A stretch of 58,090 bases of DNA, filler included, from Jimgerdemannia flammicorona (taxonomy: Eukaryota), in NCBI GenBank assembly GCA_003990765.1. It is 3 parts of 3 records of this genome, joined end to end, with 100 filler letters (N's around TTAATTAATTAA, not from the genome) between each part and the next. Parts side by side here need not be neighbours in the genome. Positions count along the whole stretch, not along the records: positions 19,399 to 38,696 come from RBNJ01001976.1; 2 more parts are not named here. One strand, 5' to 3'. Every line of letters begins with the position of its first letter. Position 1 is the stretch's first letter. Below the pieces are notes generated by a model, which saw nothing but the letters and a program-made list of their open reading frames with translations, had not been told where the DNA came from and ran no database searches. Positions 10,027 to 38,796 of the stretch are shown one piece after another. A program made the position numbers and the translations under genes.

Positions 10027-11858
10027 TTTACCAAACTGTCTATAATATACTACTAATACAAATATACTCCTCACCCAATCCTACTTGAAAAGTCCCTCTC
10101 TCTCTCACCATTACTCTGAAATACTGCCCACCTCTCTACCACTCCAATCCTTCTCCCACTCTTCATACAGATTGTCTCTACTAGCTACTACTGATATCCT
10201 CTATCTGTACCCTCACCCCTCTACTACCCACTCAATATATCTAACATCAGTCACTCCCATCTAGCCACTATTTCTCCTAATAGCAGTCATAAACCCTCCT
10301 CAAATACTAAATCCAAATCACTAGCACCCATCCTAATATCAGCCACTCATCTTCCACCCTCCCCACCAGCCTCCTCCAGAGGTCTCTCCTATCACTGGTC
10401 CTGGTAAGTACACCTCCAACTACACCTCAATCTTCCTCCAAAAGTCCCCCATCACCTAACACTTCTCCAGCCAATGTTCAGAAGTCTATATCACTCCTCT
10501 CTCCTACTCAATATTCAGAAACTCCTCACACTCCTGAGTACCCTCCTCTACCAAATAGTCTGTCTGATAGTTTAATATAATATTGCACTGTAAAACTCTC
10601 CACTATACTACTCAGAACTTGGGGGGGATCTATTTTACTACCTGCCCACCCTACTACCAAATACTATTCTAGTCTCATCCTCACCAATCCCCACTCCTTA
10701 CCATATCTCTGGCCATAAGTCTCTTCCATATTCCTAAAGGCACTCTATGCTATCTTTTAAGCAGAAATCCTCTACCAGCACTCTGCCCAATAGAAGACAG
10801 TCTCACCTCTATATCTGGGATCTCTATTTCTCCCCCCCCCCCTTATTTCCCCTCTATTGGAGACCAATATAATGTGCCCCATCAACCACTCCTCACTAAA
10901 TCCCCTATACTACATCCTCTGACTACCCTCCAAAGCCACCAGAGACAGAAGATCCCCAGTTATACCATAGGGGGAGAATCAGGCTTCTCATACTCCTTAT
11001 ATAAGAGAAATCCACTCTCTACCCCTCAACTCACTCACATACTTCAGACACCATGCTCTCAAGTAGTGAAGACACTTGAGATAATCCACTAGCCTTAGGC
11101 CTCCTCTGACCACTAGCTAAGTCAATATCTCTCAACTAATCTGACTCTATTACCCCACCCATATTCAGGTCTTGGCTATCTTCAGAAGTTACTTGATCAC
11201 CTATGCTGGAAATTTCAAGTAGTACTCTAGATATCATAGTTTAGGCAGTCAGTATATATTCATCACTATTACCCTTCTTGTCAAAGAAATATATCAACTA
11301 TCCCACCCCAAGAGGGTGCTTTTCTACTTCATCAACTACTGCTCCTACCACTCATATGGCAATAAAGAACCATATACTAAAAAGTAGATTCCCAGATAGC
11401 AAACAGCCTCTTCCACTGGAACAATTATTCCAATTACATTCCTTCCTACTATTCCTCTACTCAGTACCAAGGTCTTACACTTATATCAGTTGAGCTTAGC
11501 ACTAAAGCATCTCTTATACTACTCTACTGCATTCTTTAGCACTACAACATCTACAACTAATCTAAGCCCAACCACTATATTGTCAGTGAAGGCCCCCACC
11601 TTTCAGTTAACCCTTAGTATATCTAACTCTCTCACCTTATACCATATCCTATCTAGAAGTAGCTCCAGAGACAGCACATACAGTATTGGTGACAGTGGAT
11701 CCCCCTGTAGCACTCTTCTGCCTAGAGGAAAAGAATACCCCCCATATCTAATTACTATAATTGCTGCCTGACTTCTCTCCAACAGACTGACTAGAGCCTG
11801 CTGGACTCCATAAGAGACTCCAATGTACATCAGTACTCTTTCCAACTATACTTACTAG
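10027..11858 (-). mobile_element. Older L1/Tx1-like LINE, 3' portion (continues 18324-18666)
   Basis: QGDPLSPILY RT motif (ORF 11603..11845). The 3' region matches the LINE end at ~57390-57450. Interrupted by a hAT insertion. Confidence 0.85.
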
Positions 11859-11879
11859 TAGTGCTCTAAATGAATGGAG

Positions 11880-12065
11880 TTGATCCAGATGAGATTTGAT
11901 TCAGGTTCATCATGTGATAGATTCAAATCAACTCAGATTGGTCTTATGATCTGATCTGGATTGATCTGGATTGATCTGGATTGATCCATCCAGATTGATC
12001 CATCTAGATGATCCATCCGGATTGATCCATCCAGATGATTCATCTGGATGATCCATCTGGATTGA
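11880..12065. repeat. hAT left subterminal repeat array (GATCCATCC/CTGGATTGAT)
   Basis: Dense short GATC-containing direct and inverted repeats next to the TIR. Confidence 0.8.
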
Positions 12066-14593
12066 AATCTTTGGTAACATCACCCTTTCCTTTATTCCCT
12101 CTCTTTTCTTTGTTCTTTTTCTTTGTTCTTTTTCTTTGTTCTTTCCTGCCACATCATGAGCAAACAAAACAGCAGCCCTTAATTCGTACATTAGTCCAGT
12201 CTACTCATTTTTCACCCTGCAATGATCATCAAAAGAGGGAGTATTCGAGGTAGAAACACACTCTCTGCTGACAATGTTAGATTCTTTCTCATATAGACAG
12301 CACACAAGCTGCTCATTGAGAGCCAAAGGGGCAATGGCAGTGGTGATGGCAATGGCAATGGCAATGGCAGAGATGAGGGTGAATTCTGGCAACAACTTAT
12401 GGCAGTTCTTCAGACCTTAGAATTCACAGACCTCACAGCTATGTATGTGGCAGCCTTTTTGGAGTAACTGGTAGTAGATATAGGTTGCTCTTTTCTGCTA
12501 CTACTTTTTACTTGTTTAAATTCCCCCAGTATAACTCGATTCACCTCATGCTCTTCTTAGGGTCTACAGCTCTATGGCAAGATCTGCCGACTTTATTCAC
12601 AACATCTGGTCAAGATGAAGAAAGGTTGGAGGATGTTGCAGGGCATGCCTTTGGTGGCTGAGCTATTGAGTCAATGCATTGTGTGGTGGAGGTCTCAAAA
12701 GGAACAGAAGCAAGCCTTCATGAGCAATCTTGTGCAACTTATGCAACTCATTGGCATGCAACTCATCAGCATGCAGCTCACTTACTCACTCACTCACTCA
12801 TGCTCTTTTTCTGAAATACTCATTTCCATGTTTTATTTAATTTCATTTTTTATGTGATCTCTCTCTAAAAAACACCCACACTTGTATGCAACCCGCCTGT
12901 ATGCAACCTGTCCATATGCAACCCATCCACATGTAACCTGTCCACATGCAATCCATCTGCACACTTATCTTGGCCCCTCAGATCAGGGCTCAGTTCCATT
13001 GGAAAGGAGAGTTCAAAGTTATCCAAGTTCAACCACATCCAGTGTCTGATTAAATAGAGAAGTTCAAGGGCAAGATGTTCAGTATGAGCAGTACCAGCAT
13101 CATCATCAAGGCTTGGGGGTCTACATTCGAATCAGAGCCAATTGTTCTTGACCAAGGGGTCTATTGGCCAGCAGGAGTAATTAATGATGAAGAGAACCAT
13201 ATCTTTATTAATGAATACAGAGAGGTGGTTGTGATGGTGGTAAGGTACCTCTACAGTGATGAGCTTCGCTGCCACATCAACAAGATTTGTGAGAATTGCA
13301 TCAAATACCAGGTGGCAGAAAAGAGGGGGCAAAAAAGTAAGGAGGGGGGGGTTTGGATGGGAATTGGGTATACTGCAATACTGGTGAAGGGTGGGTTCTG
13401 GAGTTCTGAAATCCCCTGTACTCATCTCCCTTTTTTTTTACTCTTCCCCAGATTAATCACACTCTTCACTGATATACTCTTTACCAATATACTCTTTTTG
13501 ATATAAATCTAGAGATGCACAAGATTCTGTACCCCTACCAGAACTTTAGAAGTGCTGTTGAAGAGCAAACTGCATGTGAGCATGATACAGCCTGTGCAGC
13601 GATGGCAGCTATGATCTGGGGTTCTTTGAGCAGATTGGTAGAGCATATGGCAGACCAGCTTGGTGGTGATCTCAGCATGGCTGTATATACATTCTTGGTG
13701 TAATTTAGCATGCCATATGAGGTGAAGAGCTCTGCTTTTTTGGGGTGCTATAGCCTGGGGGGTTTCTGTAGCCCAGGGGGTTTCTGTAGCCCAGGGGGTT
13801 TCTGCCCCCCTACATGTAAAAAGGACTGACTGGTTGCTATCCATTTTGGCAGATTTCCAAGCCAGGGCTCCTGGGGCTGGACCAAGGGCAGGCATACACC
13901 AGCACAGCCTAGTAGTATAAGGTCCTGGGCCAAGGGTTCACCCAACCATACACTCACATCACATCAAGATATGTTGGGCACAACCTTTCTCTGCCCACAC
14001 ACACAGATAACAATGTTACCCCAGTAATGTTTTACATCCTGGAAAGGAAGGGCCCAACCTGGAAGGATAGCAGTAGAGTCTAGTATGACCTCATCTATGG
14101 TTTCAGAGTCCCATTTGCAGCCAACATGGCCATCCTCTTCCAACCACATGACCACCACAGTACTGTCACCTTCGAGGAGAGCTCAGATACAACAGTCATC
14201 ACACTCACAATAGATGACAGGCTCATTAAGGCCTGGGACCAGTAGGTAGAGCAGTTTTTGTGAGGGTTAGGTAATCTTTTGCAAGGGATAGGCAGTCTTT
14301 CATGAGGGTTAGGTAGTTATTTTGTGTGGGTTGGGTAGTCTTATGTGGGGGGTTGGACTGGGTGCCTCTTCTGTAGTACTAGCTTAGCCATTATGCAGGG
14401 CCCTACCAGCCCCTTGGCTCTGCTCTGTAGTGCTGCTGGTGCAGTGCTGCAGCACAGGGCCAGGGCGCCCATGGGACCTGAACCAGTGATGGGGCCCGAA
14501 TCTGTGGTGGACTTCAACTGCCAGAAACGCCCTCTGACTACCAGAAGCACCCTCTGACCACCAGAAGCATCCTCTGCCCCAGACTCCTTGGCA

Positions 14594-15215
14594 GCTTGGG
14601 GCTGCCCCCTATACCGCTGGCAGAGGGCCACAAATTTTGCGTGCTCCCTCTGCCTGCCCTGTCCATCCCAGACACTTGTGGCTTGGGGCTTCCCTTTGCT
14701 GCTGGCAGAGGGCTGTAAATTTTGTGTACTCCCTTACCAACTCTGCACCCACCAACCCTGCTAACTGACCCCACCCACTGACCCAGGTGCTGACAGCTTG
14801 GGGCTGTCCCTCACTGCTGGCAGAGGGCCACAAATTTTGCGCACTCCCTCCACCTGCCCCACCTGTCCCATACACTTGTGGCTTAGGGCTGCCCCTTGCT
14901 GCTGGCGGAGGGCTGCAAATTTTGCATGCTCTCTCTGCCAACCCCATGCTCACCAATCCCGCTGACTGACTCTGCCCACTGACCCAGGCACTGACAGCTC
15001 GGGGCTGCCCCTCACTGCTGGTGGAGGGCTACAAGTTTTGCATGCTCCCTTTACCAACCCCTCTGACTAGAACACTTGTGGCTTGGGGCTGCTCCTTGCT
15101 GCTAGCAGAGGGCTGCAAATTTTGTATACTCCCTCTGCCCACCTGCCCACTGACCTGGGCACTGACAGCTTGGAGCTACCCCTTGCTGCTGGTAGAGGGC
15201 TGCAAACACTGCGCA
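14594..15215. repeat. GC-rich array, ~7 copies of a ~45-bp core with ~85 and ~116-bp periods
   Basis: Core GCTTGGGGCTGCCCC..TGCTGGCAGAGGGC..CAAATTTTG near 14594, 14681, 14797, 14881, 14997, 15081 and 15167. Confidence 0.8.
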
Positions 15216-15399
15216 CTCCCTCCACCACTGCCACCAACCCTGCCAACTGCTGCCCACTTGGGCTATAAACTCCAGGCTAAGTTCTCAGGGTTTTTTATCT
15301 TTTTATTATTTTTGAAAGGTATTAAATATTCCACAAGGCCAACCAACTTATCTGTGAACCCCAGGACCTGCTGAATTTTAGCAGCTTGAGCCCCACTAA

Positions 15400-17960
15400 G
15401 ACATCAGATACATATATATCTGGATTGTCTCAGTATTCAGCACATACCTCTTTGGGGCAATGAGGTCCACTCTACCTGAGAACACCTGCTTGATGGGAGC
15501 ACTGGAGGCAGGAATCACTAGGTAGTCCTGAGCCATACCACATAGGCTGGGGAAGTCTGTTTGATGCAGCTGCATGCCCCGGTGGATAGAGTGGTGGTTA
15601 GATTGATGGGTTAAATTGGCCCAATACCCACCTGATAATACCCACCTAACAACCTACTACCTGACAACCCACCTTCCACTAGTTGAGTACCTCCATACTC
15701 TCCAGCAGGATCATACAGTCACTGGCAAGGTAAATGGTAAGTTTGTCTATTGATGGCAGCCCCTCCACTGATGGCTCCCTCTTCCTCTTTCTGCTGAAGT
15801 AAATGTGGGACAGGAGGAATCTCTCAGTATATTCATCCAGACTTCAGCCGGAAACTTGCAGCAGTACATAGTTTTTCTGGTACACTTCGATTACAGTCTG
15901 CTTGGTTCTCTCAATGAAGTGCTGCTCCTAGCCCTTATTGTAGCTTTAAGCATAGGTCCAGCACTGTTCAAAGAAGAGGAGAGAGTGAGCTTTTGCTGGG
16001 GTTTCTCTGTTTTGGAAGGGGCAATGGCCATACACTGACATTGACATACCTGTACTGATTGAGTATACAGCAGTATCTGTTTGGAAGTAGTACTTTCTGA
16101 GCTTACTAAGAGCAACCTCTATGGTGTCTCTCTGATCTGGGCTCAACCGTAAATCACTGCAACCCTCTAGCCTGTCCTCGAGCTTGTCCTCTAGCCAGTC
16201 AATCAGAAGGTTATATACTGGTATTGCTGAGCTTATTGTCAGGGTTATTTATTTGACTATATTTTTCATACAATTGTCGAAACACTGGCAGTTATATATG
16301 GTGAGGTGTTGTATTGTGCAGAGGTAGACAAAACAAGTATGGAGGCTGACAAAATGAGTGTGGAGTCAGAGCAATCACTACTTACTTCTAAAACTCTGAC
16401 AACATTCCTAAGTACATCTCACTCACTTTCATCTAGAGCCTCGGCCTGTATTTCCTTGTTGGCAGCCACTGTTGAATCAATTGGATTTTTTTTTTTTTTT
16501 TTTAAAATAAATCATCCAAAACAAGTTGCTTCAGCTGACTGAAGAAAAAAAGGATATATACTATAGCAAACTCCAGTGTGCACTGGATCATTGCAAATGT
16601 TGAGTTCCAATGCATACAGATGTCCAATATAAGCTCTTTTGGGGCTAAACTGATTACTCTACACTACATAGCGAATTTGTCTCATTATTGTGAGGATGAT
16701 CAGACTGATACAACCAGGTTGTGCAGCTTGGAAATTATACTCAGAGCCCCTCCTCTCTCAGATATTTTGTCTATGTGTGTAAGATAGTCCTGAATAGCAA
16801 GGTTCAGTATATGGGCCTGGCATTGCATATGGCAGCTTTCTGCACCAAAGGCCATGTTTTTCTATTTGAGGCTGGCCACTAAAACTTTGAAAAATGTTGA
16901 GTTGTTTGTGGCATTATCTATCATAATGGTCAAAATCTATACTTAAAATATTCAGTTGGCAAATTTATGTAAAAATAAATAATCAATAAAATCTAGTTTA
17001 TTTTAGGACCTCCCTCAAAACACCAACCTGACAGCAAGCCCCCCTTTTTTACCTTGGTTATGATCCCAAGCTCCTGGATACAACTAATAAAAGCATCTGT
17101 GATATTGTCTCCAGAATGAGGGCCAGCAAGTTTGACAAAGTCAAGGGTGAGAGATTTAAGCTATCAATTGAGGTCAATCCAATGACTAGTAATGCCCAGA
17201 AACGAAATTGCATTGGGGGATGTCCATGTGTCGATTATAAACGAAATTTTGCCTGCCGAATTCTGCTTATTGAATGTGAGGTTAAATTGGTGAGCTCTTT
17301 TATATAATTCAGCTTGCAAAGGTCATGGTGCTGTCCTTATTTTACCTGAAGTGTCTGGCAGAGATTGTCATGCTCCTTCCTATAGGCCTCCAGAACATCT
17401 TTATGAATAGTATCGGTATTTGGCAAATATAAATCATGCTTGAGGAGACCAAAGATGCTATGCAATTGATCACTCTTGATGGTTGTGAATGGTTGGTCTG
17501 TGCACACAATCCAGCGAATGAGCTGATTTCGAAATTCTGCCAAAGAGTATGACTAAATATTTTTGATTAAATGGTATTATTGGTATAGAAATGGTCAGAC
17601 AATCAGATAAACGTACTCACTATAGCTTAGATGTTGATTTTATTTGTCTTCATATTCTTTTTGATTTTGTCAGAGTACTTGTCTTTTATGTGTTGATTCA
17701 TATTCAAAGTCATACCCCTAAGCATTTTGAACTTCTGGCTGGTGTAGTTTATGGGGGTAGATGAAACAATATCATATATATGTCAAAACAAACAAAAAGT
17801 GTCAATAGGTGCATCTTAATTTTTTACCTACAATAATTACAAACAATATCATCTCCTATCTTAGCACAATGTTACCAGATTTTAGAGCAAGAATTGCATG
17901 GAAGGTATGGAACTATCAGGGATGTTTGACTTGAAGCATCATCAGTACTGTGAGCTGTTG
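15400..17960 (-). pseudogene. Intron-containing hAT transposase (BED finger, DDE core, dimerization domain), degraded
   Basis: Minus-strand motifs SKIW*H..VCNYC, WIVCTDQPF, DTWTSPN..FLGITSHW, IDNATNN, CQAHILNL, HWNSTF, KLRKYY and DFPSL..MAQDYLVIPASSAPIKQVFS. Confidence 0.88.
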
Positions 17961-19298: not shown

Positions 19299-19398
19299 NN
19301 NNNNNNNNNNNNNNNNNNNNNNNNNNNNNNNNNNNNNNNNNNTTAATTAATTAANNNNNNNNNNNNNNNNNNNNNNNNNNNNNNNNNNNNNNNNNNNN
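19299..19398. other. Artificial contig spacer
   Basis: N44 + TTAATTAATTAA (stops in all six frames) + N44. Confidence 0.97.
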
Positions 19399-19594: not shown

Positions 19595-22270
19595 CTTCTC
19601 TTCCTCTCCAGTTTGGTCTCTGTATACTTGGGTTTGCTTAGCATCAAAGTAAACAGAATTAGTTATATGTATATCTGATTTTGGATGGACTTAATTCAAA
19701 GTCAAGTTCTGGTTTGATATTAGTTTCTGGTTCAGGTAGGGCTGTAGCTGGACCTGCTTCTGGTTCAGGGTCAGATTGTTGATGAAGAGTTTCTCTTGCT
19801 TCTTCCTTAAGAATATGGTGGGCCTTACTGTTCTGGAATTGATAATATAATATAGTCTTGGTCCTAGTATAGTGAAAGTCAGTAGAGTTGAGCCACTTGG
19901 CTATAGAGACTTAGGCTTTGTGAGAAACTAAGGCTAGAAAGACTGCTGCTGGTTATCCTAGGTCACTCGGATTTATAGAGCTGATAAAACTCTTGTTGAG
20001 AAGAGTAAAGAAGGCTTCTATAAGACCTTCTTTATCTTAACTTACTGGGTGTAGAGCAAGGAGTTTGGTGAATAGAGTTTCACCTATTTGCTGATTTAAT
20101 TGGAGTACTTCTTTCTTTAAATGAAGTTTGTCTCACTTATTATAGGTATAGAGGTCAAATTGTCCTTGTACATTAGGTTCAATTCTCTCCAGATTGTCAG
20201 ATGATTCAGGATAAATTCTAGTTCAGAGGTTGGGCCCTATACCAACTTATAGGAATTCTCAGAAGGGTTTGTAGTGGGGTAAGGAAGCATCTTGAAGTAG
20301 AATTGGATTGTAAACCACTGCTACCAAGTTGTAAGAGGGTTGCTTTTTTAGAGTAACCATTATATAATTCTGGAAGGATTTTCTAGAAGTTCTAGATATT
20401 CTGGAAGACTGTTTTCTTAAGGTCAAGATCAATTTCATATAGAGTATATCCTCTATGCTTATTGATTTCAAGATTGAGTAGATGTCTGAACCAAAGTCCT
20501 TTTTCGGACTAGTTCTGGATGTTTAGGATTTTTCATATTTTAGGAAGTTTAAGAAACTAAGACTAGCTTAGTTGAATTGGCATATCACTATAGACAATAC
20601 TCAATTAGGAAATTTTGTAATGGGGTTAGAAGTGGGATCTAACAGGGAGCAGATTTACTTAAGAGTGGGTTATTAATATAGATTTATTTACTATTCATAA
20701 TATTGCTATACTAGGAGTAGTTGTGTGAAGAGATATTGTAGAGAAGTACTCAGGAGTTGTGTTTGGATTATTCAGGTCTTCAAGTCTGAGATTCTGAGGT
20801 CTGGGAGAGGGGGTATTTATACTAGTAAGGGGCTATCTAGACTATGCTAGATATAGATATAGCACTTAGTACCTTGCTGAGTCAGAATGTAGTCATATAG
20901 TACAAATGTAATCTGATATATCAAGAGATCATCTAACTGCTGAGTCAGTTCATAGTTATTTTTTATTTAATGGACTCTATGTCCTATGGATTTTTATTGG
21001 AAGGGAACCTAGACTATATAGGCCAAAACCCTCTCCCACCACCCATCAAGCACTGCCCCCCCATTAACCTAGGCTAGCTATTGTCCATGCCAGGTGCAGC
21101 AGGGCAAAGAAGCCTGCACCTCATTCTGTATACCATGCTCTCCCTACTACCAGGAAAAACCCAGCCATATACTAATGACCAAAAGCACATATCTGAGAAC
21201 CCAATATATATATAAGACCACACCCGAGTTAAATAGAATAGCCCCTGCCACCTCAAAGAGAATGACAGGCAAAGAAAAAACCCTCATCAAAGCACAACAT
21301 AGTGGGTAGGGCCTGGTTCTCCTAGTTGAGGTAAGTAGAGAACTTACATGTGAGGTAGGAGGAGACCTCCAATACCCCACTACTCAAGCCTGTGGGCCTC
21401 GATCACATTGCCATATCAGCTCTCAGTTCCAGTTGAGTGCAGCCAAGATGCCTGAAATGGGTAGCCTTGGGCCCTCTGACCCCCCCTGATGACTAGGGCC
21501 TAACCCATCAACCTGCCAAAAGAAGCTGAGAGTGATATCTACTATCTAACCATACTGCACCAATCAAAAGGCCCCACCAAAGCAGTACCTGCCCCAGCCC
21601 TGATGACTGCCCCCAGCCTGGCACCCTACTGGTTTACTGTTATCACCCTTCTTCCTATCTGTGACAGCCATCTCTCCTCCCATTCCAATAATACCCGAAA
21701 AGCAGTCACCTATATCAGAACCATGCTCATCAGAAAGCTCGCCAAAGCCAGAGGGCTCCACTACAGATACCAAGGACCTGCAGGTAACCTACACTGAGCA
21801 CTTGACACCCAAGGTTGGCTGACTCCCTATGTAGCCTGAGATACACCAAGACAGTATCTTATTGATGATGGCAAAAGGAAGAAGATACTGTACCAAAACA
21901 GATGTACTCCAGATGCAGCCAAAGGCACCAGAAACTATGAAAAAGTAGAGAAGACACCAATCCAACACTGATAAAGGGGCAACTTAACACCATTGCCCTC
22001 CTCCCACTATGCCCTTGTAGATATAGCAAACCAACCCAAGGTAGAGGGGATAATAATAGGGGAAAGGGGACTCAGAAGATTGCCTACCAAACCTTGTGAC
22101 CAGTAAGGTAGTGGAGAAAGAAGTGGTCAGTTCACAGTCATGTCGTATAAGGCTAATCTAACTATACTATGACTGCTAAGCTATTTATAGATTTAGATGC
22201 TGTCTGGGTAGTCTTTAATGACATCACTATCAATGACATTATCTCTGATAAAGTAGTCATCTAGAAAGAG
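19595..22270 (-). mobile_element. Family B element B1: partial 5' LTR (20330-22270, containing retroposon C), PBS and start of internal ORF
   Basis: On the minus strand the LTR end ...CTCTTACA is followed by ACTTGGTAGCAG (PBS-like). The LTR sequence resumes after C at 22126 and is cut again at 22271. Confidence 0.75.
20959..22125 (-). mobile_element. Retroposon C, full-length copy (1167 bp)
   Basis: 15-bp TSD GTCAGTTCA(T/C)AGT(T/C)A at 20944-20958 / 22126-22140, A-rich tail after AATAAA, no RT or EN motifs. Confidence 0.85.
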
Positions 22271-24346
22271 TGTAAGAGGGTTGCTTTTTAGGGTAACTAT
22301 TATGTAGTTCTGGAAGGGTTTTCTAGAAGTTCTGGATATTCTGGAAGATTATTTCTTATGGTCAAGATCAATTTCATAGGAGTACATCCTCTATGCTTAT
22401 TGATTTCAAGATCAGGTTGATGTCTCAACCAAAGTCCTTTCTTAGACTAGTTCTGGATGTTCAGGATTTTCCATATTTTAGGAAGTTCAAGAAACTAAGA
22501 CCAGCTTAGTTGAATTGGTATATTGCTGCAGATAATACCTAATTAGGAAATTTTGTGAGAGGGTTAGGAGTGGGACCTAATGGAGAGCAGATTTACTTAA
22601 GAGTGGTTTGTGGGTTATTAAATAGATTTATTCACTATTCATGATATTGCTATACTAAGAGTAGTTGTGTGAAGAGATATTATGGGGAAGTGCTCAGGAG
22701 TTGTGTTCAGATTGTTCAGGTCTATTCAAGTCTGAGATTCTGAGGTCTGGGAGAGAGGGTATTTATACTAGTGAGGGGCTATCTGGGCTATACTAGATAT
22801 GGATATAGCACTAAGTGCCTTGTTGAGTCGGAATACAGTCACATATGTAGTATAAGAGTGATCTGATATGTCAAGAGATCATCTGACTACTGAGTCAGTT
22901 CATAGTCATGTTATACAAGGCTAATCTAACTATACTATGACTGCTAAGCTATTTATAGGTTTAGACACTATCTGAGTAGTCTTCAATGATATCATCATCG
23001 ATGACATTATCTCTAATAAAGTAGTTATCTAGAAAAAGTGATTCATGGATTACTTCTCCTTATTTGCTGAGATAATAATACATTGGAACTTCATCACTAT
23101 CCCACAGGATAGCATCGTCTGTCTCATATGCTGGATAAGGTATTGGTGGGTAGAGGAGAGGTGCATTATCTTCGCTTTTATCAGATTCGCTATCTGCATA
23201 TCTTCTGTAGGTTACAGTACTATGAGTTGCAGGATTGTAGTAAGCTGGTGGCTGTGGTTCATATTGCTCATACTCAGGTGGTGGAGTGGTTGGTTCAATC
23301 TCAAGAGTTGTCTGGAGGTACAGGTTGTGTTCTCCAGTTTCTTCATTATAGTTGAAGTAATCGGGAGTGAACACAGGTTAGTATTCATGCCAGTGATCAT
23401 TGTCCCAATAAGTCTTGTATACTGTTATGAATTGTTGTAAGTTCATCAGTAAGATTGGCAGTGTGATCAGAGTTGGCAGGGATCCTTGGCTTGAGGTCAT
23501 GTCAGCATCAGAGGGATCATTGTCTTCTGCTTCATCTTCATCAAAGTGAATTATATTGTAGACATCCTTTATGGCATATCCAACTTAGGACATTTGCAGG
23601 ATATGATCATTAGGGTGTGAGAAGGTTCTGTCTGTGGTTTCGATATACTCGAGGTACTTATGGTTGAGTTCTTGTATCATATTGTTGATTTGGCCATAGG
23701 ACAGGGTAGCAACCATTTCAGCTGTAGTAACTCAGAGGCAGGAAATAACAGTGCTATACTCATAGAAGAGTTCTCAGTGTTTGCAGGCAATGAGTTTCTG
23801 GTGTTGAGACATCTGGGTAATGTCTGTATCATGGTGGTGTTTGACCATGTCTTCTAGGAGGCGGCTGATCTGGTAGTAGCTTGAGATTTGTCCAATTTGG
23901 TGGGCCTTGTTGAGCATGTTTAGGGCATTCTATCAGGCTTCCATGAAATAGAGGGGTACCAGGCTATGGATATTCATGAGGGGCAGAGGGGGAGTGGCTC
24001 AATTGACAATGGCATTTCAAATGTCAGTGCAGATACAGGTGTAGATCTTAGTGATTATATTTGTGTGTTTGGAAGTTGTAGTTGTTATTTGTTTTGGTTC
24101 TCTGGTTCAACATGTCTCAGTACTTGGTATATATGCATTTGGTTCTGATTGGTAAGATTCTGTTTGTGTGAATCTTGTGTTCTGTGACTTTGTGTTGACT
24201 CAGCTTTGTGTGCTGTGACTTTGGTTTGACTCAGCTTCATGATCAAGTAGGTGATTTCCAGATTTATTCATAGGTCGCATGTGATTTCAGTGGCTTATTC
24301 AGAGGGTGATGTGTGATTTTGGTGGCTTGGAGGTTGTGTACTTACA
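22271..24346 (-). mobile_element. 3' LTR of chromovirus B2 (2076 bp)
   Basis: TGTAAG...CTTACA terminal inverted repeats. PPT AAGAAGGGGAGAG abuts the right end on the minus strand. Homologous pieces at 19399, 20330, 31981, 32930 and 57517. Confidence 0.9.
23060..24138 (-). pseudogene. ORF embedded in family B LTR, unknown ~360 aa protein with an acidic Pro/Tyr-rich tail
   Basis: Frame from ATG 24138 (MHIYQVLRH...TDI*NAIVN...YYQISRLL...LSYGQINNM...FSHP) with deamination-type stops. Probable frameshift near 23480 into ORF 23060..23374. Confidence 0.7.
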
Positions 24347-24789
24347 ACTCTCCCCTTCTTAGTTTTTGACATCCTTGTCAGAGTCTTCTAATTTTGTTCT
24401 AGTGTTGTTACACCATTTGAGAGGTCAAAAGTCTGGTGAAGTCTATTTTTTTCAAAAAGTAGCATGCTTGTAGTACAGTTGCCTAATATGTTGGATTCAC
24501 ATATTAAAGGGTTATGTATTCAATACCATATGCCAGAAATGATTCTGACATTATTCACTGCTGGAGAATTTCCTCTAAGAAATCTTCTTAAATGTCTATG
24601 CCTCATTTCCCACTAGTGGTATGGGGAGAATAGGCTTGCTTTCAGTTTTGCTATTTTTCCAGAGGGTCAGTATTCTTATCTTGTTTTGCTGAGTTCTTGA
24701 TTTTTGATAATTATAGTATTCAGGAGAATAATATATAGTTTGTACAGATAGGTGTGGATATTTGGTTTTAGTTGTTCAAGGAATCATAT

Positions 24790-27700
24790 TCCTGAACTAA
24801 GTCAGTAGCATTCTGGAGGTTGGTCTTAGGTTCTCATATTATATTGTAGATTGGGTAATCTTTCTATTTGACAAGGTATTCTGAGTGGTTCTTGTGGCCA
24901 TATTTGTTGAGGATTTGTTTAACTTCATATTCTTCTTGGTCATTAATAATGATAGGTACAGGTGGTTTGGTAGTCCAGTTTGGAAATAGCTCATCATTGT
25001 TTTCATTATATTGCTTGAGATGTTGGATATTAAAGACTGGGTAAATCTTAATGGTGTCTGGTAACACCAGTTTATAGAAGATTGGAGAGACTTATGCAAT
25101 AACTTTGAATGGTCCAATGAACTTACTGTTTAGCTTCGTAGATAGTCTGTGCTTCAGGTTATCAACTTGGTATCCTCAGATATCCAGTAGAACTTTTTCT
25201 CCAATGTCAAAGGTTTCTTCTTAGTAGTGTTGGTTAACATACTGTAACTGTTGTTCTTGAGCTCGCAATAAATTTTCGATTGTAATCTGGCTTAGATTGT
25301 GCATTTAGAGTAGGAATTCTTCAACAGTTTCGACTGTAGAGGGTTCATCAGTAGTTCAGATAAGTGTCAGAGGAGTATTTGGGTTTTGTCCAGTATTGGC
25401 AAAGAATGGGGTCATTTCAAGAGAGACTTGCTTACTGTTGTTATAAGCAAACTCGACTGTAGTGAGGTGTTTATGCCAATCATCTTGTCTGTAGGAAATA
25501 TAGTTCCTTAGCATTTGTTCCAGAGTTCAGTTCATTCTTTCGGTTTGGCCATTAGTTTCAGAGTGAAAGGCTGTGGATAGTGCAAGTTTTGTTCCAAGGT
25601 GCACATGGAGGGCTTTCCAAAAATAGCTGGTGAATTTTGGGTCTTGGTCACTAACAATGATCTTAGGAAGACCATGATAGCAGAAGATGTTGTCAAACAA
25701 GAGTGTGGCTATGTCTGGTGCTGTTGCAGTGGTAGTGGTTGGTACAAAGTGGGCTTGTTTGCTGAGATAGTCTATAAAGACAACAATTGCATCTTTTCTG
25801 TTCTTGGTTCGAGGTAGTTGTATAATGAAGTCCATAGAGATTTTTTCCCAATTAGCAGATAGTACTGGAATAGGGTAGAGTAGGCCAGGTTTTGCTAGTG
25901 TTGAGGACTTATTCTGTTAGCAGGCATTGCAGGAAGTGATGTAGGTCTTGAGCTGGTCTGCCATGTGAGGCCAATAGAAGTTTTGGGAGATAACTTCATA
26001 ATATTTATCAAATCCTAAATGTCCAGCTGTAGGGGCATCATAACATTCAAATAGGATAGTCCTTCAGAGGTCTCAGTTGTTTGGGACATACAGTCTGTCT
26101 TTGTAGTAGATAGCATTATCTTTCAGTTGATATTGATGATACTGTGTATACTTGTCAGTATTATCACCATTCAGGATTTCTCAGAGTGCTTGAGCTTCCT
26201 TATCATTAGCACATGCTGCAATAATTTGCTTCATGATAGTGTTGGTAACCAAGGTGAGAGTTTGGATAACTTCTTCAATGGGTGGTCTAGAGATTGCATC
26301 GGCAACAATATTTTCCTTGCTAGGGTGATACTGGATTTCATAGTCAAAGTTGGTGAGGACTTTCATCCATCTGGCTTGCTTTTGAGAAAGAGTAGCCTGG
26401 GTCTTGATATTGACTAATGATTTGTGGTCAGTCAATATAGTGAAGTATGCTCCTTCTAGGTATGGTCACCATTTGATCAGAGTATCTACAATGGCTAGCA
26501 TTTCCTTTTCATGGGTTGCATAGTTAATTTTGGCATCATTGAACTTGTGGGAGTGATAGGCTACAGAGTGTCCTTCTTGCATGAGTACTGCTCTAAGAGC
26601 TAGGTCAGAGGTATCAGTAGTAACTTCATATAGTAGGGTAGGATTTGCTGCTTGAAGTACTGGAGTAGTTATCAGGGCATCTTTCAGTACTTGAAAGGCG
26701 GTATCTTGCTCAGATCCCCAATTTACAAGATTGTTAAAGTCTTTCTCTTGTTTCATGATCTAGGGTTGTTCTTGTTTCTTGCTGTGCTTGGTCATTTGGG
26801 TGAGGGTGGTAGTGATTTTAGCAAAGTTGGCAACAAATCGCCTGTAATAGTTTGCTAATCCCAGGAATGACTGGAGGTCTTTCAGCTTCTTGGGTCTGGG
26901 CCAATCTTTGATTGCAGAGATTTTGCTGGGGTCCACTTTAATTCCATTTGGCATGACAATGTGTCTAAGGAATTGGATTTCTTTCAGGAGAAATTTGCAC
27001 TTGCTGAGTTTTACAAAGAGTTGGTTTTCTCAGAGTTTCAGTAGTACTAGTTCAAGGTGTTCGAGATGTTCCTCCAGGGTTTTGCTGAAGACTAAGATGT
27101 CATCAATGTAGATAACAACAAATTTGTCCAGATATGGATGCAGAATGATATTCATCAGTGTCTGGAAGGTTGCTGGAGCATTAGTTAAGCCAAAGGACAT
27201 AACCAGGAACTCAAAGTGTCCATAGCAAGTTCGGAAGACTGTCTTGTAGATGTCTTCTTCTTTCATAGCAATTTGCCAGTAACCATTTTACAGGTCAAAG
27301 GAGCTCATGAATTGTGGGTTGGTAAGTCTATCAAATATTTCATTGATCCTTGGTAGTGGGTAATAGTTCTTGATGATCTGTTCATTAAGGTTATGGTAAT
27401 CAATGCAGATTTGCAGGTCTCCTCCTTTCTTGACAACAAAGAGGACTGGTGCACCATAGGGTGATATACTGGGTCTGATGAATCCTTGTTCTAGGAGTTT
27501 GTCAATTTCTTTCTTGAGTATATCGATTTCTCTCAGAGACATGTAGTAGATTGACTTAAAGACTGGTTTGGTATCTGGAATAGTCTTAATGACATGGTCT
27601 ACTACTCATTTAGAAGGTAGGCCTTTCGGGAGCTTCTTTGGGAATATGTCTCAGAATTTCTGGAGTAGTGGTCTGACATGGCTGTCAACTTTGAAAAAGT

Positions 27701-28005
27701 CTTCTTCAGAGTTCTCAGGTTCTTCTTTGGATGGGCAGATAGAGATTGCAAAAAGAGAGTATTTCTTGGCCAATTTCTTGAGTTGTAGCTTATTGATGTA
27801 AGTGATCTTTGGTCCAGGGTCACTAGAGTTGAGTGGGTCCTTTTTACCTTGCAGTTTGAAGTTATGGTGTCCTTTCTTGATGGTCAGAGAATGGTTTACC
27901 CAATCGATCATGGGGTTCTCTTGTTTCAACCATGGGGTTCCAAGGATGATTTCATTGTCAGGAAGTGGTACAATTTGGAGGGTAACATGTACTTGGTAGT
28001 CAATC
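24790..28005 (-). pseudogene. Chromovirus (Ty3/gypsy) pol B2: partial PR, RT, RNase H, integrase, chromodomain
   Basis: [79 protein letters not shown]. Confidence 0.93.
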
Positions 28006-31000
28006 AACAAGAACCTCATTGGCAAGCTCAAGATTCTCACCAAACCAGCTGGCAAGAATGATGGAGTTGTCACTGTAGATGGCACCACCTTACCAATTGA
28101 CTCAATTGCTGCTAAACTTCCCCTCAAGATCTAGAAGTACTGGGAACATTTAGATTTCAGGATAGCACCACTAGGAGATCATAACCTGATCCTAGGCAAA
28201 CCCTGGCTTACATGGCACAACCCTCAGATTGATTGGATCAAGAATGAAGTCACCTTGATTCAGGATGGAGCCAATATTACCATCAAGCCAGACAAGACTC
28301 AGACAAGAACCCCAATCACTACCCTTTCAGCAATTCAGTTCAAGAAGGCCCTCAAGAAAGCTACCTGTACCTTTGTGGCACTGATCCAATCAAAGAAAGA
28401 AGACAAGAAGCTATCAATTAGTAAAAGTGTCAAGTTACTGCTGAACAAGTACAAGGATGTCTTCTTGGACAAACTATCTGGTCTACCACCTTCAAGAGAC
28501 CATGACCATGAAATCAAGTTGGTACCTGATACAGCTATACCTAAGAAGAAAATGTACTGCATATCTCCACTCAAAATTGAAGTAGTTAAGAAGAAACTCA
28601 ATGAACTCATCGAGCAAGGAGCCATTCAGCCAAGCAAGTCACCCTTTGGCTCTCCAGTCCTATTTGTCAAGAAAAAGGATGATACTCTATAAATGTGCAT
28701 AGACTATCAAGTACTCAACAAGATCATAGTCAAGAACCACTATCCACTACCACTTATAGATTAAATCTTTGATGCTCTCAAGAATGCAAAGTACTTCACC
28801 AAGATTGATCTCATCTCTGGGTATAACCAAATTTGAATTAAGCCAGAAGACATACCCAAGACTACCTTCATGACACCCTTTAGACTCTACAAATTTCTAG
28901 TCATAGCCTTTGGTCTCACCAATGCACCAGTAATCTTTCAAGATCTCATGCAAACTGTCTTCAAGGATCAGCTATATATCTTTGTGCTTGTATATATTGA
29001 TGACATCCTGATTTTCAGTAGCACTGAAGAAGAATACCTCAAGCACATCAAACAAGTCCTCAAGATCCTCCATAAGAACAAGCTCTATGTAAAGCTCAAG
29101 AAATGTGAATTTTTCAAAGATCAAGTTGAATATCTTAGACACATTGTATCAGCCAAAAGAATTTAAGTAGACCTAAGGAAAATACAAGCCATTGAACAGT
29201 GGTCTGTACCAGCAAACCTCACTAAACTCAGGTCCTTCCTTGGTCTGGCTGGATACTACTGTCAATTTGTCAAGAACTTCTCTGGTATCGCAGAATCTTT
29301 AACAAATCTCCTGCGAAAGGAACCCAACTCTGACCTCTATGTCCCCTACATCTGGGATGCCTTCTGTCAATAAGCTTTTTAAGAACTCAAAAACTACCTG
29401 ACCCATGCACCTGTCCTTAGAAATATGGACCCAAACTTGAAGTTCATGGTCACTATAAATGCATCTAACTTTGCTATCAGTGCAGTCATTTCTCAAGATG
29501 ATGGTCAAGAACACTGACCTATTGCCTTTGAGTCAAGAAAATTGTCCCCAGCAGAACAAAAGCTGGCTACTTACAAAAAGGAACTCCTGGCAATCATGCA
29601 TACCCTTAAGATCTAGTAATACTATCTAGAAGGAGTTGAGTTCGACGCGATCACTGATCACAGGTCCCTTCAGTACATCAACACTCAACCAACCCTTTCT
29701 TGCCAACAAGCCAAGTGGAGTCAACTACTGCAGACCTTTATCCCAAACATTATCTATAAGCCTGGCAAAACTCTAGTTATACCAGATGTGCTGTCAAGAA
29801 GACCTGACCTTGCCGCAATTTTACAAGTCACCATGGTACCTGAATTCCTCAATCAGATCAAGAAGGCATATGAACAAGACTCTCTAGTTCTACAAAAGAA
29901 CACCAAGGAATTTAAGGAAAAGTACACTATCAAGGACAATCTCGTGTACTATTAAGACAAAGTATATATTCCTACCAACTCTGAACTATAGTACAAGATT
30001 CTTCATAAACATCATAACTCCCCACTAGCTGGCCACCTTGGAACTGAGAAGACCATCAAGAATATCCAATGAGACTACTACTGGCCAAACATGCTCAAGG
30101 AAATCAAGGAGTATGTCCAAAGCTGCGATCTTTGCCAAAGAAACAAGTCAAGCAACCAAGCACCTGCTGGTCTTCTACAACCCTTGTCAATTCTGACCAA
30201 GAAGTTCGAACAAGTTACAATGGACTTCATTGTGTAACTCCTATGAACCAAAACAGGCTATGATGCTATTGTTGTATTTGTAGACTATCTCACTAAGATT
30301 ACAATTGCCGAGCTAACCACAATCAATACCACTGTTCCAGAAATTGCAAGAATCTTCTTCAAGACTGTCTTCCACCATTATGGACTTCTCTGAGTAATTA
30401 TTAGTGACTGCAACCCCAAGTTTACAAGTTACTTCTGGCAAGTACTCTTCAAGACCCTTGGAACCCAAATTGCTATGTCCACTGCCTTCCATCCTCAAAC
30501 TGATGGACAGACAGAGCGAATGAACAGAATACTTGAACAAATGCTCAGAAACTATGTATCTTATGAGCAAGATGATTGAGACCACTATCTGATCTATGCC
30601 AAGTTTGCCTACAATAATGCCAACCAATCATCAACTGGTCTTTTCCCATTTCAGCTACTTTACAGTCAAAATTCTGAGACTTCTGTAAGTCTAGTCTAAT
30701 TCCAGCAATTCAGTTATACTCAAGTCTCCACAGCCCAGAACCTTATTGACAAAATGGATTCTCTTCTCAAGATCGCTACTACAAACTTGCAAAAGGCTCA
30801 GCAACATCAAGCTAAGTATACAGATAAGAAGTGGCGAGATATTATATACAACATTGGTGATATAGTTCTACTCAAAGCTGACAACATCAAGGCTCAATCT
30901 CAAGTCAACTGCCAGTCAGCCAAATTCCAGCCCAAGTACCTTGGACCCTTCGAGATTACTGAGCAAGTCTCTACCTGGTCTTACTGTCTCAATTTGCCAA

Positions 31001-31285
31001 CAACCATGTATATACACCCAGTATTCTATGTGTCACAACTCAAGGCCTAGAACCAGTCACCTCCATACCTGGCTGAATTCCGACACCATCAGTACCAGTC
31101 ATAGTTGAAGACCACATTGAGTATGAAGTCGAGAAAATCTTAGACAAATGAGTCCAATACTGTTGCATAGAATACCTAGTCAAGTGGATGGGTTACCCTG
31201 AATATGACACCACCTAGGAATCTGCTGCTAATCTCAAGAACTCTCAAGACCTCATCTAAGAGTTTAAGCAAAAAGAAACTCATTG
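28003..31285 (+). pseudogene. Chromovirus (Ty3/gypsy) pol D: partial PR, RT, RNase H, integrase, chromodomain
   Basis: [66 protein letters not shown]. Confidence 0.93.
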
Positions 31286-31578
31286 ACTGCCTATGAGATT
31301 CTCTCCTTGGATAGTAGATGACCTACAGTACTGATCAGGCACATTACACATCGGGGCTCTCTAAGAGATACAGGAGAACCTTATAAATCCTGCAACCAAT
31401 AAGGTTCGAACCAGTTCTTATCCAATCAAGATAATACTTTGGCCCTCACCTTATACAAAGATGGTCAATTCTTGCCAATAAGTTGGTATATTTAATTTGA
31501 AGTTTCTTTTAGTCTTATTGTTTATTGTATGTAACTTTGAGAATTCAATAAGGATATTGATTCTTAAGGAGGGGGAGA

Positions 31579-31980
31579 TGTAATATTTTAGTATAGTTTA
31601 TTCCTTTTCTTTGTCTTTCTTTAATATTCTATAACCTTCTGGTACTTTCTAAATGCTTAGAAATCCTTTCTTAGTGCCAAGTATTAACTAGTACTTATTT
31701 AGTTAGTCACTGAATATCCTGGAAACTTGTTGAACTTTATTTGTCATTATTTGTCATCTTTGCTGAGAACTTTTCTCTTGGCATTTTCCTTTGATTTTCA
31801 GATCCTTCTGGATTCTTCTTTCAGATCTTATATAAATATCCTCTTTGTTCTTATGAATAAAGTCTCAGAATATTTTCTCTCAGAAATTCTTTGAGAATAC
31901 TTAAATCCTTAGTATCTCTTTGAGCTACTTAGGACTATCAGAATTAGTCACTTTCTTATTTAGAAACTAAAACTGTTACA
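31579..31980 (+). mobile_element. 3' LTR of chromovirus D (402 bp)
   Basis: PPT AAGGAGGGGGAGA then TGTAA...TTACA, with internal TATATAAA and AATAAA. Confidence 0.85.
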
Positions 31981-32767
31981 ATATCCTTCATAGCATATCC
32001 AACTTGAAGTATTTGTAGAATATGGTCATTGGGGTGTAGGAAGGTTCTGTCTGTAGTCTGAATATACTTGAGGTACTTGTAGTTGAGTTCTTGTATCATA
32101 TCATTGATTTGACCATAAGATAGGGTAGTAACCATTTCAGTAGTAATAACTCGAAGATAGAGAATAATAGTACTATACTCATAAAAGAGTTCTTGGTGTT
32201 TGTAGGAAATGAGTTTCTGGTATTGAGATATCTGAGTAATATCTGTATCATAGTAGTGTTCAACAATGTCTTTTAGGAGATAACTAATCTGGTAATAGCT
32301 TGAGATTTGTCTGATTCAGTAGGCCTTGCTAAGCATGTTCAGGGCATTTTATCAGACTTCTATGAAGTAGAGAGATGCTAAGCTATATATATTCATAAGG
32401 GGTAGAGGAGGTGTAGCTTAGTTGATAATGATATTCCAAATGTTAGCACAGATACAGTTATAGATCTTAGTGGTCATATTTGTATATATTCAGAAGTTGT
32501 GGTTATTGTTTGTTTTGATTCTCTGTTTTGACATATCTTGGTACTCAGTATATATGCATTTGGTCCTGATTGGTAAGATCTCATTTGTATAAGTCTTATA
32601 TTTTGTGACTTCATATTAACTCAGTTTTGTACACTATAACTTTGGTTTAACTCAGCTTCATGATCTTGCAGGTGATTTCCAGATTTGTTTAGAGGTTACA
32701 TGTGATTTCAGTGACTTGTTCTGAGGGTTTCATGTAGTTTTGGTGGCTTGGAGGTTGTGTGCTTACA
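31981..32767 (-). mobile_element. Family B LTR fragment containing the 5' half of the LTR ORF
   Basis: Colinear with ~23560-24346 and ends GCTTACA. Confidence 0.88.
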
Positions 32768-33262: not shown

Positions 33263-33891
33263 AGATTAGATTAATTATAAATATAACATATAGTACTTAG
33301 ATATTAAGACAGCTACTTTCTCAACTAAAGATACTTGATATAAATACCTTTAAGTTATTGACACCAAGAATTATCAACTTGAAGAGTAGAATTACTATAA
33401 TAGTAAAAGTATACCATTATACTTAATATCAAATATATATATATATTCTAGTGAAGTCTTGATACTAAGTGAAGATTTTTAGATATTTAAAAAACATTGA
33501 AACATTGTGGAATAATTAAGAAAAACAGGAAAAGTTTAGAGAAAAGATACAAAAATAAATTATGACTAATGAAATTATTATATCAATTATTAATTAATAA
33601 TGACTTCCTGCTCTGGAAAATTTAACATCTCACTATTACTTACTGTTTCAATCTTATCATTATCAGTTATTTCACCTGTTAGTGTGATCTATGATGGGCG
33701 AACATTATTGGCGTGGAAATGCGAGATGCGAAAAACACTATACGCTGCCAGTATATATTGTCGCCAGCACCGTATTATCTACGAGGTTGTCGGGAACGTA
33801 ATCAAAAGCGTATGCAAGAAATGCGAAATGCTTTTTGTAACGATAGGTTGCCAATGAAATGCTTTTTGTACACGATAGGTTGCCAATGAAA

Positions 33892-35325
33892 TCATTTTTC
33901 TCGGATATTAAGTATTAGAGGCCTCTGTTTCTTAGTGTAGGACCAGCTTCTGACATCGTGTAGGACATGCTGCTTTTTCACTGTCTGTTGCGCCTCCGTT
34001 CCCTTTCCTGATGCCACTTCAGAACCGTCGTCCATCCATACGACCTGTACGGCTGGGTTCCGCTTCTTGAAAATCCCCATCCACTCCCAAAACTCCTTCC
34101 CTGTCATCGATCCCTTCTCCCCCTGCCGATTGGATCCGTGAATTTCGTCGTCATTTTTTAGCGCTCGGTACCTCGGCTCAACGACAAGTCGCTCGACGTC
34201 GCGCGAATACGAGAGTGGGCCATGGATGTGAACCTCTGTATAGTCGGGATAGTGGAAGAGCTTGTCTGTGGAGATGGAGGGTTTTTGGTCAGTGGCGACT
34301 TGGGCGACGGCTTTAAGCTCGGCGTCGGAGTAGGTCATGAGGATGTGATTGAAACGCTGAAGCGGATAGGAGGAAGAAGGGGTGAAAAGCCAAAGGATAC
34401 GAGGAGAGCTCATGTACTTGTGGAGTAAGCCATAATAAAAAACTTGCATGAGAGATGGTTACAGACTTACTTCAAACGTGGCCAACCGCCCGTCCAATGC
34501 CGAGTCTATGAATATCAATACCAGGAAATCGGACCCTTGATCAATACAAAGGGACAGAAAAATTCATGTGAGTGCATGTGAGTGAGACTGACCTGTGGCG
34601 GCGATGGTCGCTCGAGATCGAACTTCGTTTCGAAGGATCAGGTAGCTTCTTCCGTAGAACGAACACGAAAATACTCCGTTCGGATCAGCGGTGGGATTAA
34701 GGACACCGTATTTGACCCTGAGAAAAGATGAAACCAGTTGTAAGAAAGTGCCGATTTTTGTGTGTAAAATAAATATTGGGTTCTTGGATATGGATAATCG
34801 AGTTCGTCACACGTACTGTTCATACGCCTTCGCATTTTCATACGCATTGCCAAAACTTTCATTCTCCATTTGCTTTCTCCCAGTATGTTCATCTTTGAAC
34901 GTTGACCCCATCTTTTCATACACCTCATATGCATTGCGATACTCGGTATCCGTCGTCATATACTTCAGTAACGTGTCCAACTGCACATGCACAATAATCG
35001 GAGCCCGACTCCGGAACCAATTCGTACACCTGGCGACATCGCGGGCGCTCTTGAGTCCAAGCTTCCGTAACCGCTCGAGGAGCCGGGAGCTCTCATGCCT
35101 GGAGTTCGCGTCGGCCTTGTCGCGGACGTACTCAAGTGCCTTAGTCTGCGCGTCGGTCAGGTGTGGGCGAGGTACCGGTGACGGACAGCGTGAGCTCAGG
35201 GAGAGGGCTAGGCGGTCGTACACATTGTCCAGGGATTCGCGGCGTTTCGGGCGTTGGTGGTGAGCGGGAGGGTTGGCTGGCATTATTCGACTACTGGGGA
35301 CGTTGGAATGTTTCATAACTGACAT
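33892..35325 (-). CDS. DUF3626-like protein, 4 exons (35325-34817, 34717-34593, 34505-34471, 34356-33892)
   Basis: GT-AG introns join into one open frame. Motifs IIVHV..YRNAYE, E..FGNAY..VKYGVLN, YGRSYLIL..V..RAT...DS and YTEVHIHGPL...DVERLVVEPRY resemble DUF3626 as I recall it. CpG-rich and uneroded. Confidence 0.78.
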
Positions 35326-38696: not shown

Positions 38697-38796
38697 NNNN
38701 NNNNNNNNNNNNNNNNNNNNNNNNNNNNNNNNNNNNNNNNTTAATTAATTAANNNNNNNNNNNNNNNNNNNNNNNNNNNNNNNNNNNNNNNNNNNN
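38697..38796. other. Artificial contig spacer
   Basis: Identical N44-TTAATTAATTAA-N44 linker. Confidence 0.97.

Follow-up and report, generated by a model that had tools for sequence, protein, structure and literature searches.

Known accessory genes and the window analysed

Accessory genes are a hallmark of the 'complex' retroviruses, and several of them reach the U3 (unique 3′) part of the long terminal repeat (LTR): in mouse mammary tumour virus (MMTV), a betaretrovirus, the open reading frame (ORF) sag, which encodes a superantigen, lies in U3, and spumavirus tas/bet and lentiviral nef are 3′ accessory genes that run into U3. Fungal LTR retrotransposons are, to our knowledge, generally described as gag-pol only. 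Here we analyse a 58,090-nt stretch of DNA from Jimgerdemannia flammicorona (assembly GCA_003990765.1; the whole stretch is called the window), a mosaic of decayed transposons in which two LTR families, A and B, each carry a sense-strand ORF entirely inside the repeated unit. The best overall explanation, which we regard as reasonably likely, is a genuine LTR-internal accessory gene in two distinct Ty3/gypsy families. The proposal of such a gene is largely right in that each family supports it, while common ancestry of the A and B genes is unproven.

The sequence-only reading of this window had pointed to MMTV sag as an analogy, and this would hold for the position of the gene if the TATA motifs mark the promoter, and fails for sequence and membrane anchor. 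As in MMTV, the A and B frames are sense ORFs of roughly 300 codons in the LTR upstream of the presumed promoter, so that the two LTRs and the 3′ end of the genomic RNA would all contain them. However, Pfam gives no Sag sequence match in A or B, and the hydrophobic anchor that makes Sag a type II membrane protein is missing from A and B (maximum hydropathy 0.57–0.97). The setting differs as well, as the host is fungus-like and the elements are Ty3/gypsy without env. The transactivator Tas has an acidic activation region and is expressed from an internal promoter, a layout that matches the one proposed below for A and B. In contrast to the A and B ORFs, tas/bet and nef start upstream of the LTR, in the interior, and extend into U3, and no relation of sequence or fold to them was found.

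The additional ORFs (aORFs) of plant elements occupy the interior of the element, either between pol and the 3′ LTR or upstream of gag, often in antisense. The A and B ORFs do not share this position, as both fall within the LTR unit, 243 and 289 nt from its first base, respectively. A study of plant Ty3/gypsy elements describes aORFs as lineage-specific, for example in the Retand lineage, with functions that are not known (PMC11963269). The CERV protein of Caenorhabditis elegans Cer1 is reported to be an accessory protein acting on the RNA of its own element (PMC10309623); compared by description only, its likeness to A and B is that of an accessory protein of an LTR retrotransposon. The accessible part of the Crapaud LTR paper deals with LTR subfamilies, not with LTR ORFs (PMC10787394). 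The full-text literature searched, which excludes most subscription journals, brought up no account of LTR-internal ORFs in fungal elements. A gene wholly within an LTR would be present twice per element, survive in solo LTRs and be expressible wherever the LTR lands, and could affect both the spread of the element and host gene regulation.

Two LTR families each carry a sense-strand ORF

Families A and B are true Ty3/gypsy LTRs, as their ends are of the TG..CA type, a purine tract abuts the 3′ LTRs, the ORF is present in both LTRs of element A (43740–50443, minus strand), and this element has CTAT on both outer flanks. On the sense strand, LTRs of both families start with TGTAA and end with ACA: the B LTR runs from TGTAAG to TTACA and is preceded by AAGAAGGGGAGAGT, and the A LTR runs from TGTAA to GACA (ATA in one decayed copy) and is preceded by AGAAGAAAGA. 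Self-comparison of the window agreed with the repeat coordinates given earlier, and the strands and ORF placement given there hold as well. The three A LTRs are 86–90% identical to each other, with 90% between the pair that brackets gag, protease (PR) and integrase (IN) in element A, and the B LTR is 80% identical to its partial copy. The 5′ copy of B is shortened to 785 nt and the interior of its element is rearranged; the target-site duplication was assessed for A only. The repeats and interiors are as follows.

22271–24346, minus strand: family B LTR, the 3′ LTR of a chromovirus-like element, with TGTAAG at 24346 and TTACA at 22271 (self-comparison, termini, purine tract).
24347–24360, minus strand: polypurine tract AAGAAGGGGAGAGT, directly before the B LTR (sequence).
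24347–28130, minus strand: interior of the B element with PR, reverse transcriptase (RT), RNase H, rve, SH3_Tf2-1 and a weak Chromo match (domain matches); gag and the 5′ leader are missing.
31981–32767, minus strand: partial B LTR, its first ~785 nt, 80% identical to 23564–24346 (self-comparison).
93–1601, plus strand: family A LTR, at the 3′ end of a copy on the plus strand; the internal end of element A is matched at 12–92.
43740–45267, minus strand: A LTR, the 3′ LTR of element A (self-comparison, termini).
45268–48919, minus strand: interior of element A with gag including zf-CCHC, aspartic protease, integrase H2C2 and rve (domain matches); an internal deletion has removed RT and RNase H.
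48920–50443, minus strand: A LTR, the 5′ LTR of element A (self-comparison).

The description of A as an element with a zinc-knuckle gag and no chromodomain stands, with no Chromo match at E ≤ 0.01 in three frames of 45268–46500. Calling B a chromovirus is less secure: its Chromo match (E = 2.4e-4) reaches 21.4 bits, under the Pfam cut-off of 25.1, and adjoins SH3_Tf2-1 at 3.5e-14. The neighbouring fragment at 28135–31980 (plus strand) has a clear chromodomain (4.9e-11).

Each LTR had been said to carry a sense ORF of 300 or more codons upstream of a TATA box. This placement is correct for both families; the length is correct for B (~365 codons) and too high for A (262–271 codons). The window copies of both ORFs are dead, with 3–9 stops per copy and destroyed start codons.

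22964–24058, minus strand: ORF of the B LTR (copy B1), ~365 codons, with nine in-frame stops, ATG changed to ATA and the stop codon TAA at 22961–22963.
31981–32477, minus strand: ORF copy B2, first ~165 codons, with the ATG kept and four stops.
335–1120, plus strand: ORF copy A1, 262 codons, with three stops, ATG changed to ATA and TAA at 1121–1123.
44720–45025 and 44218–44718, minus strand: ORF copy A2 in the LTR at 43740–45267, split by a frameshift, with one stop in addition.
49398–50201, minus strand: ORF copy A3 in the LTR at 48920–50443, with four stops.

Uninterrupted relatives and the direction of decay

Uninterrupted relatives of both frames are present in protein databases. For A, a word-indexed search of 5.8 billion proteins, which could miss distant relatives, returned five of them, and one more came from a profile search and two from a cluster look-up (P0004–P0008 and P0011–P0013); P0005 is full length, with 271 amino acids (aa) from the initial M through LNFLL. 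For B, an exhaustive HMMER scan of 1.84 billion representatives with the B profile gave P0009, the N-terminal 128 residues, which starts with methionine at the codon that reads ATA in B1 and ATG in B2. It overlaps P0003, an uninterrupted C-terminal fragment of 247 residues, and the two tile the whole B frame of ~365 codons. The source contigs of the A and B relatives are short (720–2375 nt) and come from ENA or JGI/IMG. In the alignment of the eight A proteins the acidic region contains several in-frame length changes, after which the terminal motif is regained in seven of the eight.

Aligned to these relatives, the stop codons of the window copies point, with one exception, in a single direction. 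A C>T or G>A change alone is sufficient for 3/3, 4/4, 6/6 and 4/4 stops in four comparisons and for 2/3 in B1 against P0003, that is for 19 of 20 in total, as expected from the earlier proposal that the stops are products of deamination. The amino-acid differences behave likewise: C>T/G>A explains 39 of 51 between A1 and P0004, 31 of 41 between A3 and P0004, 22 of 27 between B1 and P0009 and 31 of 37 between B2 and P0009, and the reverse direction explains 6 (A1), 2 (A3), 1 (B1) and 1 (B2) of the same differences. Against more distant relatives the share of C>T/G>A falls (42/80, 36/76 and 33/95). In a contig from an RNA run that covers 24296–24346, another copy of the B LTR has TGTAAGCGCAC in place of the TGTAAGTACAC of the window, a single site which suggests that hypermutation hits CpG on both strands, unlike the CpA-directed repeat-induced point mutation of ascomycetes. 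In the best explanation, C>T/G>A hypermutation has killed the copies in the window, and intact versions exist elsewhere.

Uninterrupted relatives and C>T/G>A decay support, family by family, the idea of a conserved accessory protein encoded in the LTR. Taken separately, each LTR family has support for a genuine accessory gene in the part that precedes its TATA box, and the LTR ORFs are very probably real coding genes. A metagenome scan with the A alignment pointed to one further locus (L001), which we rejected as a chance pattern match in bacterial/phage-like DNA of 28% GC.

The N-termini of the two proteins may be related

If the A and B ORFs descend from one gene, their proteins should align above chance in a consistent register. 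The alignment made by eye in the sequence-only reading was partly substantiated: Smith–Waterman, hhalign and HMMER all return the same register, which does not rise above chance on the decayed window copies. Using intact sequences, a profile of the A proteins matches P0009 with 7.4–7.7 bits (single-comparison HMMER E = 1.2e-4), aligning A 18–135 to B 5–120, and this score is reached by 14 and 17 of 30000 full shuffles and by 2–3 of 2000 local-window shuffles. P0009 is also the top non-self match of the A profile among 308 real six-frame ORFs, with 7.7 bits versus 4.7 for the next. In Smith–Waterman comparisons, 3 of 1000 shuffles score as high as P0009 against P0004, and 39 of 1000 do so against P0005; with phmmer, 3 of 3000 do so against P0004. 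The motifs come closer in the intact copies (YYQIGRLL in B, EYEIGNLL in A), which also amend two details of the restored B sequence: the stretch given as ISCL reads IPRL, closer to the IPNL of A, and the one given as DIRNAI reads DIWNAI, as its TGA derived from TGG. A signal that is absent with decayed copies and present with the intact P0009 fits the decay of a true relationship.

A number of results weigh against such a relationship. BLASTP of A versus B is non-significant, with E values of 0.9–12 for the window copies. The comparison of the two ORFs by hidden Markov model (HMM) profiles, which the sequence-only reading had put forward as a check, is borderline and not significant: hhalign gives E = 0.12–0.13, P = 0.046–0.13 and a probability of ≤1.1%, and 10 of 400 column shuffles reach its score. 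B profiles against A proteins are at chance (327–783 of 2000 shuffles match), as are P0003, the C-terminal part of B, against A (156–497 of 2000; Smith–Waterman 88–368 of 1000) and the A profile against the decayed B1 and B2 (377–501 of 2000). The phmmer scores of P0009 are weak against P0011 (33/3000), P0005 (135/3000) and P0006 (152/3000). The exhaustive search with the B profile gives no A protein at E ≤ 0.001, and the most conserved block of A (residues 140–215) has no significant counterpart in B. Finally, some 30 non-independent homology tests were run, and the favourable ones all involve one fragment of 128 aa. As many tests were run and those in favour share this one short fragment, we lean only slightly towards homology of the N-terminal ~115 residues of A and B, judged from these alignments.

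The strongest alternative is that both ORFs are real and unrelated, their common layout (where the ORF sits within the LTR, the acidic tail and the TATA motif) reflecting convergence under the constraints of host transcription and of the LTR, and we give it a substantial chance, if less than an even one. It draws on the non-significant BLASTP, hhalign and reverse HMM tests, on C-terminal two thirds without significant similarity, on LTR DNA that shares just a 17-nt TATA motif (12/300 shuffles), and on pol genes so distant that only the integrase core can be aligned (36%). It is harder to reconcile with an A profile whose match to the intact B N-terminus only 14–17 of 30000 shuffles attain and with a single collinear register over ~115 residues from all aligners; it would also require, as a coincidence, two independent inventions of a U3 gene at a like position in one genome. 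Common ancestry of the A and B proteins is possible and unproven.

An exchange of the ORF between lineages, as proposed in the sequence-only reading, is excluded in its recent sense by the divergence of the sequences, as the ORFs (~20% identity) are much less alike than the pol genes. Their identity is well under that of the integrase cores, the sole part of pol that can be aligned between A and B (36% over 73 aa). As had been noted, the LTRs are unrelated as DNA, the shared stretch being limited to the TATA motif, and tblastn of the A and B proteins on the window gives no cross-family match at E ≤ 10. The two N-termini would probably be distant homologues derived from an old common LTR architecture rather than products of recent exchange. 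If A and B are homologous, the gene is old and has been kept across lineages, which argues for a function.

TATA motifs, inferred U3 placement and RNA

In both families a GTATAAATACCC(C)TCT box follows the stop codon of the ORF, 238 nt away in A (1362–1377) and 195 nt away in B (22768–22752), and is itself followed by AATAAA. The box motif is identical at 16 of 17 aligned positions, is the only DNA stretch common to both LTRs, and reaches a score that 12 of 300 shuffles attain. A second CTATAAATAG lies at 22949–22958, just past the stop codon of the B ORF. Further TATA-like boxes are found 70–85 nt upstream of the ORF start in the LTRs of both families, and in A the ATG of the ORF (context AAAATGC) is the first ATG downstream of AATATAAAAG.

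1362–1377, plus strand: GTATAAATACCCCTCT, presumed core promoter of A, with AATAAA at 1390–1395.
22752–22768, minus strand: GTATAAATACCCTCTCT, presumed core promoter of B, with AATAAA at 22627–22632.
246–255, plus strand: AATATAAAAG, TATA-like, invariant in all three A LTRs.
24127–24136, minus strand: GCATATATAC, TATA-like, ~70 nt upstream of the B ORF start, invariant in B1 and B2 (alignment columns 211–220).

If the TATAAATA boxes are the promoters, the ORFs lie in U3, as the boxes sit downstream of both stop codons, and from these motifs we consider the U3 placement probable. The gene would begin ~240–290 nt from the 5′ end of the LTR and stop ~200–240 nt ahead of the TATAAATA box, in the inferred U3. 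Because of its location in U3, all full-length transcripts would have it at their 3′ end, and no LTR, whether 5′, 3′ or solo, would be without it. Its product would be expressed in one of two ways: through a spliced or subgenomic RNA, or through transcription from the TATA-like box that precedes the ATG, with polyadenylation within the same LTR. GCATATATAC upstream of the B ORF could be such an LTR-internal promoter.

Contigs from two runs recorded as possibly RNA (X1 and X2) bear on the B LTR. These runs hold RNA, as their contigs skip the seven GT..AG introns of a host gene (36452–38561); the contigs show presence only, without strand, start or level. On the B LTR they cover sequence 3′ of the TATA box as well as portions of the ORF (one contig of 422 nt lies on 23285–23586 inside the ORF), and variant rows fall at 22903–22976, 23450–23574, 23686 and 24144–24266. 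One contig joins the first bases of the B LTR to a different, non-purine flank, and must therefore stem from a 5′ or solo LTR elsewhere, with read-through that began outside it. Among the joints listed for the X1/X2 contigs there is no splice-type joint into the B LTR ORF. Some bins are without contig cover (e.g. 25424–26531), and a metatranscriptome run (X3) placed only five pieces; neither is used as evidence.

Protein features and possible roles

The A protein (271 aa, isoelectric point 4.5) has a basic, arginine-rich N-terminus (net +8 in the first 60 residues) and a tail ending in DEDEAPxxLNFLL, and the B protein (~365 aa, isoelectric point 4.1) has a net charge of +1 over residues 1–30. 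The C-terminal stretches of both are strongly acidic and dotted with bulky hydrophobic residues, so that the acidic tails reported earlier are confirmed by composition, and neither has a membrane segment (maximum 19-residue Kyte–Doolittle mean 0.74 for A, 0.57 and 0.97 for B). The middle of A is predicted to be helical, as is the N-terminus of B, and the long acidic tail of B is probably disordered. Weighing against the proposed function, the all-helical AlphaFold2 models have low confidence: their predicted local distance difference test (pLDDT) scores, 39.2 (A) and 52.8 (B N-terminus), are too low for a fold search. Similarly, Pfam returns no family at E ≤ 10 for P0003, P0004, P0005 or P0009, and searches of PDB sequences and the ESM Atlas gave nothing usable for A or B (Atlas models with pLDDT 0.35 and 0.39). 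P0001 has one sub-threshold Pfam match (RAMP, 18.4 bits versus a cut-off of 27) and P0002 none. The family had not been recognised before, and Pfam, PDB sequences and the ESM Atlas indeed provide no known family, fold or function for it.

Judged on charge layout only, the most likely role would be that of a nuclear regulatory factor which serves the element by transactivation or by handling RNA. Such a layout can be likened to that of viral transactivators and of Rev-, Rem- and CERV-type factors, and by this analogy a transactivator-type function is put forward tentatively and with considerable doubt. Also doubtful as it stands is the broader proposal of an undescribed U3-encoded regulatory family common to two deeply diverged Ty3/gypsy lineages, in which each LTR, solo LTRs included, would be a self-contained gene whose product boosts its own transcription or counters silencing. 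If true, such an LTR would combine its own TATA-like box, the ORF and the LTR poly(A) signal, and encode a protein with a helical N-terminus and an acidic, activation-type tail.

The genes could also be real and act in RNA export or packaging, or in the suppression of host silencing, rather than in transcriptional activation, a role that we think unlikely. The arginine-rich N-terminus of A (net +8/60), which resembles viral RNA-binding export factors, and the leucine-rich hydrophobic patches of the tail would suit it, and counter-defence would pay because the genome mutates repeats heavily; however, neither Pfam nor PDB sequences show similarity to any such family, and the B N-terminus lacks a basic character (net +1 over residues 1–30).

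It is less probable still, and in our view decidedly so, that the open frames are untranslated by-products of LTR sequence, the 'intact' entries being younger copies that have yet to acquire stops. Gene callers and databases list open frames only, so the intactness of the relatives is in part an effect of ascertainment; differences among the three A copies of the window are spread evenly over codon positions (20/16/24), and the predicted structures are poor. The codon-position spread is uninformative, as decay after insertion dominates it. Frames of 271 and ~365 codons are far beyond chance at an estimated ~3–5% stops per codon, and A relatives 63–80% identical to P0005 remain open, with their in-frame length changes and the C-terminal motif in 7/8. 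The same arrangement recurs in both families, which again speaks for coding genes.

That the ORFs are host gene fragments transduced into LTRs and carried passively is very improbable, as host sequence capture is known for LTR retrotransposons but the exhaustive B-profile search (1.84 billion) gave two LTR-type fragments and one repetitive chance match only, the word-indexed A searches, in which distant paralogues could be missed, gave only 6–8 close relatives on short contigs, and there is no Pfam domain.

Neighbouring elements and other features of the window

The B element meets a third, chromovirus-type element (28135–31980, plus strand) head to head at 28130/28135 in the protease regions, with pol ~50% identical; as gag and leaders are missing, this junction is a rearrangement or nested deletion, not a simple insertion. 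The LTR of the third element starts at 31579–31891, after AAGGAGGGGGAGA and TGTAATATT at ~31580; no ORF is present in the ~400 nt of it that fall within the window. A 981-nt X1 contig with high word depth covers this LTR start, so the third element's family is also present in RNA. The region after the A-related integrase at 41174–42169 has no LTR ORF either.

The B element is itself inserted within an older copy of its own LTR family (20330–22272): 20330–20965 matches 22271–22915 of the B LTR, and 22126–22272 matches 22894–23040. This older copy is split by an insertion at 20958–22123, which recurs inverted at 53969–55150.

Two host genes are expressed and spliced. The first, at 36049–38561 (plus strand), is of the MOR2/PAG1 morphogenesis type, and contigs of the two RNA runs show its seven GT..AG introns, 107–342 nt long; the remnant of a non-LTR element (38748–40674, endonuclease) apparently interrupts or follows it. 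The second, at 33850–35345 (minus strand), has three short introns.

Elsewhere in the window, strand asymmetry is strong in 6001–12000 and 50001–58000, where the GC skew reaches −0.49 and +0.47, respectively. These blocks belong to inverted copies of another repeat (10025–11858 versus 57448–55587, 67% identical), with an RT remnant at 7010–7513. Internal direct repeats of ~200–450 nt, 67–76% identical, occupy 14571–15258 beside the remnant of a hAT dimerisation domain at 15399–15653. At 19299–19398 and 38697–38796, paired runs of 44 N surround 12 bases each (19343–19354 and 38741–38752) and look masked rather than like assembly gaps.

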